64,000 nt of DNA from Eledone cirrhosa (Eukaryota): NCBI GenBank assembly GCA_964016885.1, contig OZ024741.1, positions 315,828,001 through 315,892,000 on the forward strand. The letters are read 5' to 3'. The stretch's first letter is position 1. Each line of letters starts with the position of its first letter. The position numbers and the translations under genes are program-made. A model generated the notes under the pieces. That model saw only the letters and a program-made list of their open reading frames with translations. It was not told where the DNA came from and did no database searches. Shown piece by piece: positions 13,711 to 63,761 of this stretch.

Positions 13711-13754
13711 GGAACGATTAGGACCCCGACGGCTGAGCTCAAGCCGTTTCGACC
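13711..13754 (-). ncRNA. 3' half of a hammerhead motif isolated between (TA)n tracts
   Basis: Minus strand ggtc-GAAA-cggct(tgagctc)agccg-TC-ggggtcc; no CTGANGA half nearby. Confidence 0.45.
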
Positions 13755-13787
13755 TATATATATATATATATATATATATATATATAT

Positions 13788-14089
13788 AGTATAAAAGAGA
13801 AAACACAGGTAAGCATTAAGAGAAGGATTTAATCCAGGTATTTACGACCGTTTCATTGGTAAGTGCAACCTTATATTGCTATACTGCAAATAGCAGCCAC
13901 TCAATTATAATTGTTGTTCACAGTCCAAATTTTCAAAATTTTGAAAATTTGGACTGTGAACAACAATTATAATTGAGTGGCTGCTATTTGCAGTATAGCA
14001 ATATAAGGTTGCACTTACCAATGAAACGGTCGTAAATACCTGGATTAAATCCTTCTCTTAATGCTTACCTGTGTTTTCTCTTTTATACT
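13788..14089. repeat. Perfect palindrome, 151-bp arms, no spacer
   Basis: Arms mirror around ttttcaaaa|ttttgaaaa at 13938/13939; starts at the edge of (TA)n. Confidence 0.9.
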
Positions 14090-14400
14090 TTATACTCCAA
14101 GATTGAACGGAATTCTTACAAACTTGTGGAGTTACCCCTAGCCGTACATTGAAACCATCCATGAAACTGGCTTTCTTAACCAAAAACTGGATCACAAGAA
14201 GCAATTGTTTGCTTCTCTATCTATATATATATATATATATAGGGGGGGGGGGATTTGTTTTGCAGGATCCTTGATGTCAACTCGTTTGTTAAAACCGATA
14301 TTATAATATTTGGGGATGGTTACTTTGCCAATTCTGCTAATGAAAACACACGCACTGTTTCAATTCCACTTTAACTTTTTTATCATTAGTTATATATTTA

Positions 14401-17400
14401 TCTATATACTACTAAAACTCTGATCTTGCTTGCTTGCTTGCTTTCTTGCTTGTCTGTTATGTAATACAGCCAAAAGGGCGCGTAATGGGTAAATACTTTG
14501 AAAGCAAGTTGCCTCTGAAATGGGAATACAAATTGAATAAAACAAGTTTCGCGAAAATCTGACTCCGGGTTCCCGAGATTCGCGGGTTTTGGGGGTACCT
14601 TCGTAAATAGCCACAACGGTGCATACTGGGAAAATACCTCAAAATTAACATAACCCTGCAAAACTTCGTAAATAGCCAAAACATTGCATAATGAGAAAAT
14701 ACTCTGAATAAAACAAGTTTGGCGTAAATCACACATGGACAATATTTTCAAATTTCCAAAAATAGCAAGGAATTCATCTAAATTCAATTTATCGTATTTT
14801 ATAATGAATATCGAAAAACATAATCCATTTGTTTTTTGCTTGTCCATTCTGTAGGTAAGAGAGACAGAGAGGGGGTGAAAGAGAGAGAGAGGCTGAGAGA
14901 GAAAGAGAGAAAGACAGATAGGGAAAGAGACAGCGTCCTTAACTTTTATTTATTTTAACTTGCCCCCTATCCATAACGTTATTTCTTTCTCTCTCTTTCA
15001 CAGTTCTATTGCCACCGTGTGTATCTGTATGTGTATGTGTGCCAGTGCATGTGTTTACGTACTTAGAGACATGTGTGTATGTGTGTGTAACAGTACTTAA
15101 GTTAGAGACATATATATATATTTGTGCGTGTGTGTAGGATACCTTCGTAAATAGCCAAAACGGTGCATAATGGAAAAATAGAGCTGTAAGTGATATAACC
15201 CTAAAATGGGGATAAAACAAGTTTGACGTAAATCAACATAAACTATTTTCATCATTCGAGAAATATTTTTAATAATTATTAAAAAAAGATTTTTCAGTGA
15301 TTTTCAGTGAATATGATTTCAAAACTATAAGTTGTTTGTACTTCAAGTATCTATATTTGAGCTTTCTTTAAACAGACGATATTTTAATTATCAGCAAAGC
15401 ATTATGTGAATATGACTGAAAAATACCAGTTGGTTTTAAACAGTAGGTTTTTATGTTTTTGCTTTTGTTAAAAAGAATATTTCAATTATTTAGAAATATT
15501 TTAAAGTGAATTTGATTTCACAAATAGCTTTATTTACATAGACAATATCTTCATTTTTTAAAAAAGGGAATACGATGGAAAAGACATTTCTTGGCATATT
15601 TAAAAAGTATTCTTAAGTGAAAATGACTTAAAAAATACAAATTATTTGTACACTGGGTATATTTCAGCTTTCTTTAAACAGAATATTTTAATAAGTATTT
15701 TTTAAGTGAATATGATTTAAAAAATACGAGTTGTTTAAAGAGACAATATTTTCATTATTTAGAAATATTTCTAAATGATGATTTAAAAAAAAAATATTTG
15801 TTGAGGTAATAGGAATTTTTTCTAAGGTGAATACGATTTTCGATTCTTAAATAATTCCTCGACGAGGAAGAAAGAAAACATCTGCTTGGTCTATCGATGG
15901 TGGAAAGAAAGCACGGCTAAGGAGAGCCGAAGAAGGTGAGCAAGATAGTGGTCAACGCCAACAAGATCGGGACAGGCATGCGAATAGAAGGATCGATGAG
16001 ACTGATAAAGCAAGAGCTGCGCGTCTTGCGGAACAGAGGGAAAGAGACGGAAGAAGGAGAGATCATGAATCAGATGGTCGGAGAGCTGCGTGTCTGGCGG
16101 AACAGAGGGAAAGAGACAGAAGCAGGAGAGATCATGAATCAGATAGTCGGAGAGCTTCGCGTCTGGCGGAACAGAGGGAAAGAGACAGAAGAAGGAGATA
16201 TCATGAATCGGACGCTCGGAGAACTGAACGTCTTTGCCAACAAACCATTAGGAATAGAGCAAGGACAGTTCAACGGCGTGACCTCTCTGCTGATATTGGA
16301 CAGGTGAATAAGATCTGCGTCTGTTGTCATGCAATGCTTTTTCATGGTGAAACTGCTAACTTTTGCTGTATGAATGGAAAAGTCAGGTTGGGGAATCTGC
16401 AGCCTTTACCCCAGGAACTTCACAGTTTATTTACTACTGATCAGCCAAGGGCAAACGAGTTCAGGAAGAACCTCAGACAATACAACTGCCTGTTCCAAAT
16501 GACATCTTTTGGGGCCGAAGAAGTTCGTTCCTCAAGGAGTGGATGGAATCCTTCTATCGTTATTCATGGTCAAATTCACCATTACATCGGTTCCTTAAAC
16601 CCTAATCCCAACGAACAACCCCAATTTCTTCAAATTTACTTCTTGGGTCCTCAGGATAGTGTTGATTTGAGGATCAGGATACTCCATAACGGTTGCATTC
16701 AGCGCGACATAGTTGAATTATTGGAAATAATACTCAGACTATATAACCCTTACGTTGCTTCATTTCTAATGGCAAAAGAACAAATTAAAAATATTCCCGA
16801 AGCTTCGATTATTATTGATCCTGATAGGAGACCAGCAATGGAACATGAGAGAAGATTCGAGGCACAAACTGCAAACGAAGTTGACCTTATTATACAAAAC
16901 AGCACCGAACTTCAAGCAAAAGCACGGCACATTGTGTTGAAAGAAAATGGCGGACAATTGCAAATAATCTCAGAGTCCCATCGGTCTTATGATAGTTTGC
17001 AGTATGTTCTATTTTTTCCTTTTGGCGATGACGGATGGCATCATGAGCAACAACAAGAAGTTGGCGCCAATGCGCTACTATGCCTATCGAATAATGAACC
17101 ATGAGAATGAATTCAACCAACTTCTCAGAGGCGGTCGTTTATTTCAGCAATATTTGGTTGACATGGCTGCGAAGATTGAAGGAGATAGACTGCAATACAT
17201 CCGAATGAATCAAACATCATTGCGATCTACAACAAACAAGGTCCTTACTGACGCATTGAATGATAATGACGATTTTCGCAATATTGGCAGGCGAATCATA
17301 CTCTCTTCCACATTTGTCGGTGGACCGAGATATATGATGGAGCGATGCCAGGATGCCATGATGTACATACGGAAGTACGGCAATCCTTCGTTCTTCATCA

Positions 17401-61689: not shown

Positions 61690-62520
61690 CCGACAGCAGA
61701 CTAGTAGTCAACCACTGGTCTCACTTTATGACTACTAAGATGACTTTCTAGTCCAGCTTTGCTGGGGCAGTGCCTTGCACAGATACTGTATGTTAACGCC
61801 ATAGTAGGACATTTGCTGTCTGGAAATCTAACAGCAATACCTTTCCTCACATCCCGCTTTATTTTCCGGTATGCGATTCGAGATGTTTCAAAAGCAACTT
61901 TTTCCTCATATACAGTGTTTCTCCATTTATTACGATCAGCAGCTACACTTTCCCATGTATCAGCAGATACGTTAGCGTCTTTCAAGGGAGCTTTCAACGA
62001 ATCCTTATACCTCATTTTTGGTTTACGTGGAGGTCGTTTTCCTTTAACTACTCTCCATAAAAGAGTTGTTTTGGTATCCTAGAATCTTCTAACCTGGCAA
62101 GGTGACCACTCCATCGGAGTTTTTGCTTAAGCACAAGAGCTTCTATGCTTTCACACAGAGAGCTTTCCAAAATCTCGACATCACTTATGTGGTGCCTCAA
62201 GTGAACGCCATCAATCCGTCTCAGACACATGTGATGGAAACTATCCAACTGTTTAAGGTGGTGCCGATATGTGACCCAGGTCTCGCAGGCGAGAAGAGAA
62301 GAGTGCACACATGCCTTGTACACCTTTACCTTTGTCTTCTTGCATATGTCTCGCCGACCCCAGAGGCCCCTTTTTAGCTTTCCGAAAGCATCACTTGCTT
62401 TCCTAATCCTGTGTGGAATTCATTATCAAGGTTGCTGTATCGATTGAGAGTGCTTCCCAGGTAGACAAACTGATCAACCACTCCAAGTCGTTTATCATAC
62501 ACATAGATATTTGGTTCATT
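61690..62520 (-). pseudogene. RTE (BovB-like) LINE 3' fragment
   Basis: ACETWVTYRHHLKQLDSFHHMCLRRI, LRWSGHLARLEDSRIPKQLFYGE, RYKDSLK, CPSKAGLESH. Confidence 0.85.
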
Positions 62521-62599
62521 GTACTGTTTACCAGGGGCAAGTTGGTACATATATATATACTATTTTACTCTTTTACCTGTTCCAGCCATCCGACTGAGG

Positions 62600-63525
62600 C
62601 CATGCTGGGGCACGGCCCTTGTTGCTATACGTTCTATCTCCAGCCTGTGTTGACTGGCCATTGGTGTAAGAGGGAATTCGTCGCTGCTGTCCGTAGGTTC
62701 CCTTCGTGCTGTGGGCTCACCCAGGATCCTGGATAGCAGAGTGTCAAGATGTTTCTTGAAAACATCCACGTTCACACCAGGCAGCTCTCTCAAATTTGTT
62801 GGCAACTTGTTGAAGAGTTGAGGGCCTTTGAACCACAGGCTATTGCAATATCTGCTCCTTATTCTAGATGTGAAAGGCGGGGCATTTGGCACCACACAAT
62901 GACGTCCTGTTTTGGGGTTGGTCCAGCTCTCAATGCCAAAGTTTGGTGCTAGTCCCTCCATGATTTTTCATATGTATAACACAGTGTATCTCTCGCGTCT
63001 TTGTTCCAAGGAGTAGAGTTTCAGTTCTTTTATTCTATCCCAGTAGCTCATCTCCTTCATCGTGGCAATCCTCTTGGTGTAGCTTCGTTGGATTGCCTCA
63101 AGCTCCGTGGTTAGTTTGACACTATGGGGGTTCACAGTTCGGAGGAATAGTCCAGTCGGCTTAGGACAAATGTCCTCTATAGTATCAACATGACTTCTCG
63201 GTCTCTTATCCGGAAAGTCTTCAAGATCCAGCCAGCGAGTCGTCTGTACATTTTCGCCACCCACATGATATGTGAAGAAAAAGATACATCGTCGCTCATG
63301 TCTATCCCCAAGTCTCGTATCGATTTCGACACGGGAATTTCGTACTGTCTTTGTGTTAGCAGGTTGATATTGTCGGGTTTAAAATTTTCTAGCATTAAAC
63401 TGCATGTTGTTCTCCTCAGACCATTTGTATATCGCATCCAGATCTTGTTGTGAAAGGGCAGCATCAACCGGGTCTAAGATTGCCTGTGCTACCTTTGTGT
63501 CATCAGCATAACTAGTGAAGGATGT
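62600..63525 (-). pseudogene. CR1-clade LINE RT / 3' fragment
   Basis: SYADDTKV, WSEENNMQFNARKF, RDLGI, LEAIQRSYTKRI, LYSLEQRRERY, GPQLFNKLP. Confidence 0.85.
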
Positions 63526-63671
63526 TGTATATATACACACACACACACACACACACACACAAACACACACACACACAAATATATATATATATATATATAC
63601 ATTATGAAGAGAGAAGAAACATTTAGATATAATTAGTAATAAAATGTATCATACCTAAACTGCTCCTAGAT

Positions 63672-63761
63672 TCCTCGACTACGTAGTTTCGTGGCATAAA
63701 CAAAACCAATACATCATAAAGATATAGAGTCCTTGCGAGGTCTGCCGGCTTATCAAGAGGA
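63672..63761 (-). ncRNA. Type I HHR, U3-A8 core variant, long helix II loop
   Basis: tcctc-TTGATAA-gccggca[about 45 nt]tgccac-GAAA-ctacgtag-TC-gagga. Confidence 0.7.

Follow-up and report, generated by a model that had tools for sequence, protein, structure and literature searches.

We analysed a window of 64,000 nt (positions 315,828,001-315,892,000 of contig OZ024741.1) from the 3.0-Gb genome of Eledone cirrhosa, which carries 27 type I hammerhead ribozyme motifs, and we conclude that this window probably contains the ordinary by-products of retrotransposition of Penelope-like elements (PLEs) into (TA)n microsatellites, i.e. truncated PLE ends together with five tandem families, called retrozymes, that were likely copied from predicted RNA circles by a Penelope-type protein. 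A more far-reaching reading, to which we give the same weight as to its negation, is that rolling-circle reverse transcription of ribozyme-made RNA circles, carried out by a Penelope-type enzyme, has left a direct record in the genome, with a dimer priming two complementary DNAs (cDNAs) per circle, one at each of two dedicated sites, and each subunit travelling around the circle many times, this having happened in at least five families with thousands of copies each.

Tandem retrozyme families

Five of the eight motif types in the window belong to non-coding tandem retrozymes, which we term A, B, D, F and G and which are located as follows:

24211..24630 (minus strand): retrozyme G, unit of about 325 bp, with a short inverted arm; hammerhead at 24334-24370 with a U3-A8 core and a helix I mismatch
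34550..35095 (minus strand): retrozyme A, minus arm with 2 hammerheads, its left side cut by an assembly gap (N, 34350-34549)
35091..39413 (plus strand): retrozyme A, plus arm that holds 14 hammerheads in about 13.8 units of 310 bp
42036..43239 (plus strand): retrozyme B, unit of 553 bp present about 2.2 times, with hammerheads spanning 42534-42605 and 43087-43158
46812..47726 (minus strand): retrozyme D, unit of 466 bp present about twice, with hammerheads spanning 47111-47141 and 47577-47607
63597..64000 (minus strand): retrozyme F, unit of 592 bp, minus arm; hammerhead at 63677-63756 with a U3-A8 core

The window copies join (TA)n at defined points of the unit, the plus arm of A at a long site (unit position 165), the D copy likewise at its long site and the B copy at a short site (position 81), and the plus arm of F lies beyond the window, both F arms being visible at another locus (L257; loci are numbered L). 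Exact patterns match the genome 8335 (A), 4396 (B), 2528 (D), 7300 (F) and 58 times (G), counts that are lower bounds on units and not numbers of insertions. For G, units continue through the ribozyme in L148, L151 and L155.

As the longest open reading frame (ORF) starting with ATG comprises 27-75 amino acids in A, B, D and F, these families are non-coding. The units have a GC content of 0.32-0.42, and all five fold stably as circles (z-scores of -4.4 to -10.2). The mapped insertions exhibit no pair of long terminal repeats (LTRs) and no poly(A) end, although no search was aimed at LTRs, a primer-binding site or a polypurine tract. At the DNA level the five families thus appear to match the published definition of non-LTR retrozymes. 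Two of them share a backbone but carry unrelated ribozymes: A and G are 77% identical over 173 nt, whereas their hammerheads are unrelated in core, helix II and helix III, which suggests that the ribozyme may have been replaced on a conserved scaffold.

In D an octamer, ATGCAAAT, is found upstream of the ribozyme (47234-47241 and 47700-47707, minus strand), and it is also present in a related family of the genome sample (L083, L085 and L094). Newt satellite 2 reportedly has a promoter of the small nuclear RNA (snRNA) type, for which our literature search gave no confirmation.

A two-site insertion footprint

In the mapped insertions the 3' ends of the arms face outward and abut (TA)n, and each family uses two fixed 3' end sites, located 80-300 nt downstream of the ribozyme cut site. 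The two arms of an insertion end at different sites in 44 of the 44 two-armed insertions with both ends resolved, i.e. in 9 insertions of A (positions 139 and 165-170), 7 of B (81 and 203-206), 14 of D (228-233 and 300-302) and 14 of F (80 and 246-254). This set leaves out single-armed insertions (D 4, F 1), insertions of which an end lay beyond the sequence retrieved (A 1, D 3, F 1) or was unmapped (B 3, D 1) and a duplicate in F. The same pairing of one site per arm is seen in an autonomous PLE of the Hydra clade, H1 (see below), in L028 and L030. Moreover, the arrays run across the ribozyme cut site, and 5' breaks are found within 5 nt of it in 1 of 82 arms, which is about chance level.

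In L110 and L194 each arm contains sequence that is absent from the other arm and, consequently, neither arm is simply a DNA copy of the other. For these two insertions this argues against a self-priming fold-back, a reading discussed for rotifer PLEs (PMC3846280). An A insertion in L129 lies in an AT-rich site that is not a microsatellite and has a 14-bp target duplication. In L030, L117 and L126 an identical interrupted (TA)n motif flanks the insertion on both sides, so that the tracts may be older than the insertion or may include a long target duplication. Microhomology of at least 3 nt occurs at 6 of 41 arm junctions, with a null expectation of about 6%, but this value is confounded by copy variants and we make no claim from it.

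A tail with inverted arms is a PLE feature that is not seen in non-LTR insertion in the account given in PMC8557442. In vitro, two internal start sites define the tail of an Anolis PLE, and both target strands are cut and extended (PMC11167929). A Penelope tail and inverted arms are present in A, B, D, F and G, and this pattern argues for a PLE-type delivery of non-coding hammerhead units to (TA)n, as put forward in the original prediction for this stretch. The units might instead have been moved by the machinery of a long interspersed nuclear element (LINE) or by a Helitron-like DNA rolling circle, with their proximity to PLEs arising only via shared TA tracts. Both a LINE and a Helitron are indeed present in the window, and a comparison of the five retrozyme units with seven sampled PLE ends, which represent a small part of the genome's PLE families, and with genome loci gave no convincing match; as there is no sequence link to the sampled ends, none of them can be named as the partner PLE. 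Yet the tail pattern is identical in H1 and the retrozymes, and both the two-site tail with inverted arms and the missing poly(A) ends speak against LINE or Helitron transport, which we thus regard as extremely improbable.

The template of the arrays

Variants among the units carry information on the template. In 5 of 9 insertions of family A all full units share a fixed variant, which spans both arms in L124, L130b and L133, and 4 of the 9 insertions show no differences among their 6-13 units. A units show on average 0.61 differences if they lie in one arm, 0.46 if they lie in opposite arms and 2.69 if they come from separate insertions; the corresponding values for D, which has fewer and older arrays, are 4.4, 10.5 and 13.8, and B and F have too few full units to inform on variants. 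The combination of fixed variants, homogeneity and the distribution of 5' breaks favours one circular template that would have been copied repeatedly as the simplest account.

Thus, we suggest that the retrozyme arrays are likely transcribed into RNA that is predicted to self-cleave, and that the cleaved units may then be ligated into unit-length RNA circles. In an AT-rich target the GIY-YIG domain of the PLE protein would nick both strands, and each of the nicks would prime reverse transcription from one of two internal sites, both located on a single RNA. The enzyme might then circle the template repeatedly, giving rise to arms of up to about 18 units, which would break off at variable points and finally join head to head, and the arrays may be able to grow locally afterwards. 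Nicking of AT-rich DNA by a PLE and internal priming at two sites are established (PMC11167929), and it is cleavage and circle formation in this genome, the mobilisation of the units by a PLE, the use of two primers on one RNA and rolling-circle synthesis that we infer.

Several observations weigh against this reading. The A array in the window is heterogeneous, as one variant appears from the third full plus-strand unit on and another one two units later. Variants recur in a D array of more than 30 units on contig C1 and in L130b, in the latter with a 7-unit periodicity; this recurrence points to a later local duplication. Assembly may have homogenised tandem units, and the loci were mostly the first matches listed on contig C1, which were not chosen by end type, some having been picked for both strands. 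To these points can be added the missing match between retrozymes and sampled PLE ends (see above) and the pair-type counts of the hammerhead helices (see below). A search for an RNA dataset carrying family A listed none; four runs of unrecorded kind contain a 340-nt contig that corresponds to the unit plus an overlap, but as tandem DNA at trace depth gives the same result these contigs are no evidence on expression or circles.

No circle would be needed if a PLE inserted the retrozymes from an uncleaved read-through transcript of an array or from linear units joined by template jumps. Shared variants, and ends that do not accumulate at the cut site, would likewise be expected from an uncleaved transcript of a homogeneous array, the two-site rule fits a linear template equally well, and the mixed variant blocks of the A array in the window are in line with it. 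In vitro, ribozyme mutants of the Anolis PLE left insertion unchanged, unprocessed RNA being the main substrate (PMC11167929). Furthermore, the first pair of helix II is mismatched in 33 of the 77 motifs of our genome sample (U-U 25, C-A 4, A-G 4), which would likely slow cleavage, and slower cleavage may favour uncut templates. The arms of a daughter insertion, however, cannot exceed those of the donor on a linear template, yet young arrays contain 13-18 units with no or few differences, and new variants that are fixed in all units of both arms would require a single-unit bottleneck. Jumps between cleaved units, in turn, would be expected to place 5' ends at the cut site, in contrast to the single case among 82 arms. 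Taken together, we consider a linear template unlikely.

Another possibility is that single PLE-derived units insert once and that the arrays expand in place by unequal crossing-over, similar to satellites, a scenario discussed by Li et al. 2026 (bioRxiv 10.64898/2026.07.22.740005). The recurring variants of the long D array and L130b as well as the block variants in the window would suit such a growth. In L124, L133 and L130b, however, both arms are multi-unit and have private variants in common, and in L118, with 11 units, the differences are mostly private, as if the units had arisen together, making expansion in place as the origin of the arrays very unlikely. Repeated copying of a circle is thus the account that we prefer, with local duplication as a later event in some arrays.

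Truncated ends of autonomous PLEs

The remaining three of the eight motif types (41.0/52.8, 46.1 and 55.6/55.8 kb), like the two half motifs, represent truncated 3' ends of autonomous PLEs, which stem from four Hydra-clade families and one Neptune-type family:

13711..13754 (minus strand): Hydra-clade family, 44 bp of its 3' end with the second hammerhead half only
13789..14221 (no single strand): a further Hydra family, 3' end in two arms; half motif GAAA...UC that lacks a canonical first half
40888..41903 (minus strand): Hydra H1, 3' untranslated end; its hammerhead (40929-41035) has a domain II of 87 nt
45696..46265 (plus strand): Neptune-type (CCHH) PLE, 3' end and short inverted arm; its hammerhead spans 46110-46138
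50870..52917 (plus strand): 5'-truncated Hydra H1; end of the GIY-YIG ORF with its stop near 51811, 1.1-kb 3' untranslated region (UTR), hammerhead spanning 52769-52875 and carrying G8U, joins (TA)n
55453..55830 (no single strand): Hydra family E, 3' end in two arms, with hammerheads on the minus (55603-55655) and the plus strand (55755-55807)

Accordingly, the original prediction of mostly non-autonomous modules is not supported. The motif at 52.8 kb, which lies 3' of a GIY-YIG ORF end, is, like that at 41.0 kb, the ribozyme in the pseudo-long terminal repeat (pLTR) of H1.

H1 is young, with 150 of 150 scored genomic matches at 99-100% identity, and encodes reverse transcriptase (RT) and, C-terminally, a GIY-YIG domain in a single ORF of 773 amino acids, in which RWK, DKT, CxCx5C, CxxC and CxH motifs are present and CCHH is absent. 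The ORF end in the window is 98% identical to residues 461-773, and the 3' end at 40888..41903 shares 95-96% identity with the 3' ends of H1 copies. A Pfam search gave no domain match in the H1 protein, which exhibits a weak collinear match to a Pfam-confirmed PLE protein; a homologue search found 84 relatives, including one coral protein. At 12 inspected loci H1 shows a pLTR hammerhead, (TA)n insertion and tandem or inverted pLTRs with a tail. Its tandem spacing of 3599 bp exceeds the clade tendency of <3 kb, which is a tendency and not a strict criterion.

As for the other Hydra families, the terminal sequence of 13711..13754 follows a Hydra ORF with a CxCx5C linker in L071 and occurs in many short copies elsewhere, Hydra elements in L082 and L090 have 3' ends that match the module at 13789..14221 with 93-99% identity, and in L238 the end of family E, with 1147 exact pattern matches, is found about 1 kb downstream from a Hydra endonuclease. 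The module at 46.1 kb has 6761 exact pattern matches genome-wide and in other copies follows a GIY-YIG ORF. The corresponding open frame of 775 amino acids contains RVT_1 and GIY-YIG (Pfam E-values of 2.4e-6, below the cut-off of that model, and 3.4e-6, respectively), a Cx4CxxC linker, a CCHH-type GIY-YIG, DKG and GLKF. By these motifs the element would be Neptune-type, i.e. Neptune or Nematis. Hence, intact and young Hydra (773 amino acids) and Neptune-type (775-amino-acid frame) ORFs are present in the genome.

Hammerhead motifs in the window and in the genome

With a type I descriptor, 25 motifs were detected in the window, as compared to means of 0.03-0.88 and a maximum of 4 in 60 dinucleotide shuffles of the non-TA part. 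Hand reading added two motifs with a U3-A8 core, 24334-24370 and 63677-63756, both on the minus strand, resulting in 27 motifs of 8 types, in good agreement with the predicted number of about 27 full-length motifs of at least 8 types. The 310-bp array of retrozyme A accounts for 16 of them, 14 on the plus and 2 on the minus strand. The core is intact (CUGANGA...GAAA...UH or U3-A8, with the type I helix order I-III) in 26 motifs. Four copies are damaged, one by a core substitution and three by helix mismatches near the core: the motif at 52769 carries G8U, full-length copies of the same family (H1) having an intact core, the first helix I pair is mismatched at 24.3 kb, another helix I mismatch is found at 55.6 kb, and at 63.7 kb the second helix II pair is mismatched. 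Choosing the first GAAA as core at 41.0 and 52.8 kb was rejected, as paired helices come with the second GAAA.

The Rfam hammerhead models, suggested as a check together with shuffling and covariation, gave no match in the window at gathering score. Below threshold, Hammerhead_HH9 matched at 47.1 and 47.6 kb (36.5 bits versus 52, E-value 1.4e-5) and was the only hammerhead model among the 150 matches listed of 735 by E-value, a list dominated by microRNA models driven by microsatellites. Among 8 related short motifs, double changes occur at 8 of 13 helix pairs, with a covariation score of 0.62 versus 0.22 in shuffles and at most 0.16 in slid controls, but the counts of pair types do not exceed those in shuffles of these 8 related sequences. 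Helix III is palindromic in 8 of 8 window types and in 52 of 77 motifs of the genome sample. This arrangement is tied to dimer cleavage in axolotl retrozymes (PMC7229834) and, by analogy, would fit dimer cleavage here. Based on these sequence features, we regard the motifs as real hammerhead ribozyme motifs that are common across the genome and for which self-cleavage is predicted.

The genome sample consisted of 78 stretches of 10 kb on a regular grid (780 kb), in which the type I descriptor with a score of at least 12 called 77 motifs in 53 insertions, i.e. about 1 motif per 10 kb; the U3-A8 core is present in 13 of the 77. In the first 400 kb, 10 shuffles gave 0-1 motifs as compared to 40 real ones. 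Extrapolation from the 780 kb yields about 300,000 hammerhead motifs genome-wide. By the same rule the window has 7 insertions versus 4.3 expected (P=0.15), so that the idea of a cluster is not supported, this ordinary density also leading us to reject a special cluster or a host-encoded system; the locus itself is unremarkable. The association with (TA)n, in contrast, extends beyond the window. In two grid samples, (TA)6+ is found within 300 nt 3' of the outermost motif in 30 of 34 and 25 of 27 cases, whereas random positions give means of 7.0 and 5.9 (10.5 and 8.4 if drawn inside these loci), and 0 of 2000 random draws reached the observed count. The link is polar, the 5' side of the outermost motifs having (TA)6+ in 9 of 34 and 14 of 27 cases. 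The window is rich in TA (15% versus about 4%).

Hydra-like coding sequence was present in 14 of 40 stretches on the four largest chromosomes and in 1 of 38 on the smaller ones, and Neptune-type coding sequence in 8 of 40 and 2 of 38, respectively. Despite this skew in PLE coding sequence, hammerhead density is similar on the four largest and the smaller chromosomes.

Other features of the window

A LINE is present in several pieces at 2438-7815 (plus strand), with apurinic/apyrimidinic (AP) endonuclease, RT and zf-RVT domains in Pfam, and the best named relative of its protein is from Argonauta hians (65% identity). A broken Helitron Rep/helicase lies at 15851-20163 (plus strand; Helitron_like_N, Pif1 2B). 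High-copy repeats that have no hammerhead match are located at 34025-34349 and 47727-48307, each adjoining a retrozyme array and having (TA)n on one side. At 41904-42085 a 48-bp piece of retrozyme B is mirrored around a (TA)n tract; the resulting local fold-back is also where the H1 fragment is cut off. An open frame of 243 amino acids (56370-57101, minus strand), for which Pfam gave no match at an E-value of 0.1, is possibly part of another repeat, and a 37-bp tandem repeat with 6.4 copies (60813-61059) lies inside a non-coding segment.

Comparison with known systems

Retrozymes, their proposed mobilisation by PLEs, (TA)n targeting by hammerhead-bearing Hydra elements, the Penelope tail and an octopus Hydra family are known already, so that the suggestion of a system undescribed in kind, which had been left unconfirmed, is not supported. 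Our literature search, which covered few subscription journals, found no paper on cephalopod retrozymes or on a two-site tail in retrozymes, and the supplements of PMC7229834 and of the 2026 preprint may hold cases. The hypothesis that PLEs mobilise retrozymes via circular RNA dates from 2020, and the support given for it in the papers that we drew on consists of co-occurrence and pLTR homology. The families described here offer a test of this PLE/circle hypothesis at the level of the insertion footprint, which can be carried out directly with near-identical intact Hydra and Neptune-type ORFs, RNAs of 310-592 nt, two mapped starts per RNA and a (TA)n target as reagents. In addition, the strict rule of one site per arm bears on the origin of the Penelope tail and of head-to-head inversions. 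The extrapolated 300,000 motifs would constitute a large component that the main text of a 2026 octopus repeat annotation does not cover, as it makes no mention of ribozymes or retrozymes.

Circles of metazoan non-LTR retrozymes have been shown in coral, mussel and axolotl, and a circle-templated, PLE-mobilised cycle was proposed in the same study (Cervera and de la Pena 2020, PMC7229834). Like these retrozymes, the present families are tandem non-coding units with one type I hammerhead each and a GC content <50%, are structured and co-exist with PLEs. Unlike them, the units reach 553-592 bp and are known here from DNA alone, and the portions of that paper drawn on describe neither (TA)n targeting nor inverted arms nor a pair of fixed end sites, all of which are found here. 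Li, Clavereau and Pollet (2026), who regard retrozymes with units of 51-972 bp as non-autonomous PLE derivatives, make the same claim that retrozymes use the PLE machinery. Their case builds on co-occurrence and pLTR homology in Xenopus, with no mollusc class in the sampling reported there, whereas ours builds on the insertion footprint, the seven PLE ends that we sampled showing no convincing pLTR homology to the units.

Hammerheads are present in all Hydra families and (TA)n insertion in almost all of them, and Hydra-1_Obim from Octopus bimaculoides is listed in the same survey (Craig et al. 2021, PMC8557442). H1 resembles the Hydra clade in its C-terminal GIY-YIG, RWK, DKT and CxCx5C motifs, lack of CCHH, hammerhead, (TA)n insertion, tail and inverted pLTR, and by eye it shares motif blocks with the printed Hydra-1_Obim protein. 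It differs from the clade in its length of about 3.6 kb versus generally <3 kb and in being young and very abundant, and its hammerhead with the 87-nt domain II is unlike the one listed for Hydra-1_Obim. The 46.1-kb type, with its Cx4CxxC linker, CCHH-type GIY-YIG, DKG and GLKF, resembles Neptune or Nematis as described in PMC8557442, the clade being assigned by motifs. Finally, the footprint is similar to that of Poseidon from Anolis (Frangieh et al. 2024, PMC11167929), where two internal starts define the tail, the target is AT-rich and both strands are cut and extended; unlike in Poseidon, the tails here measure 26-170 nt instead of 30-40, and the strict pairing of one site per arm and the non-coding tandem RNAs seen here are not part of what is reported for Poseidon in the sections of that study on which we rely.

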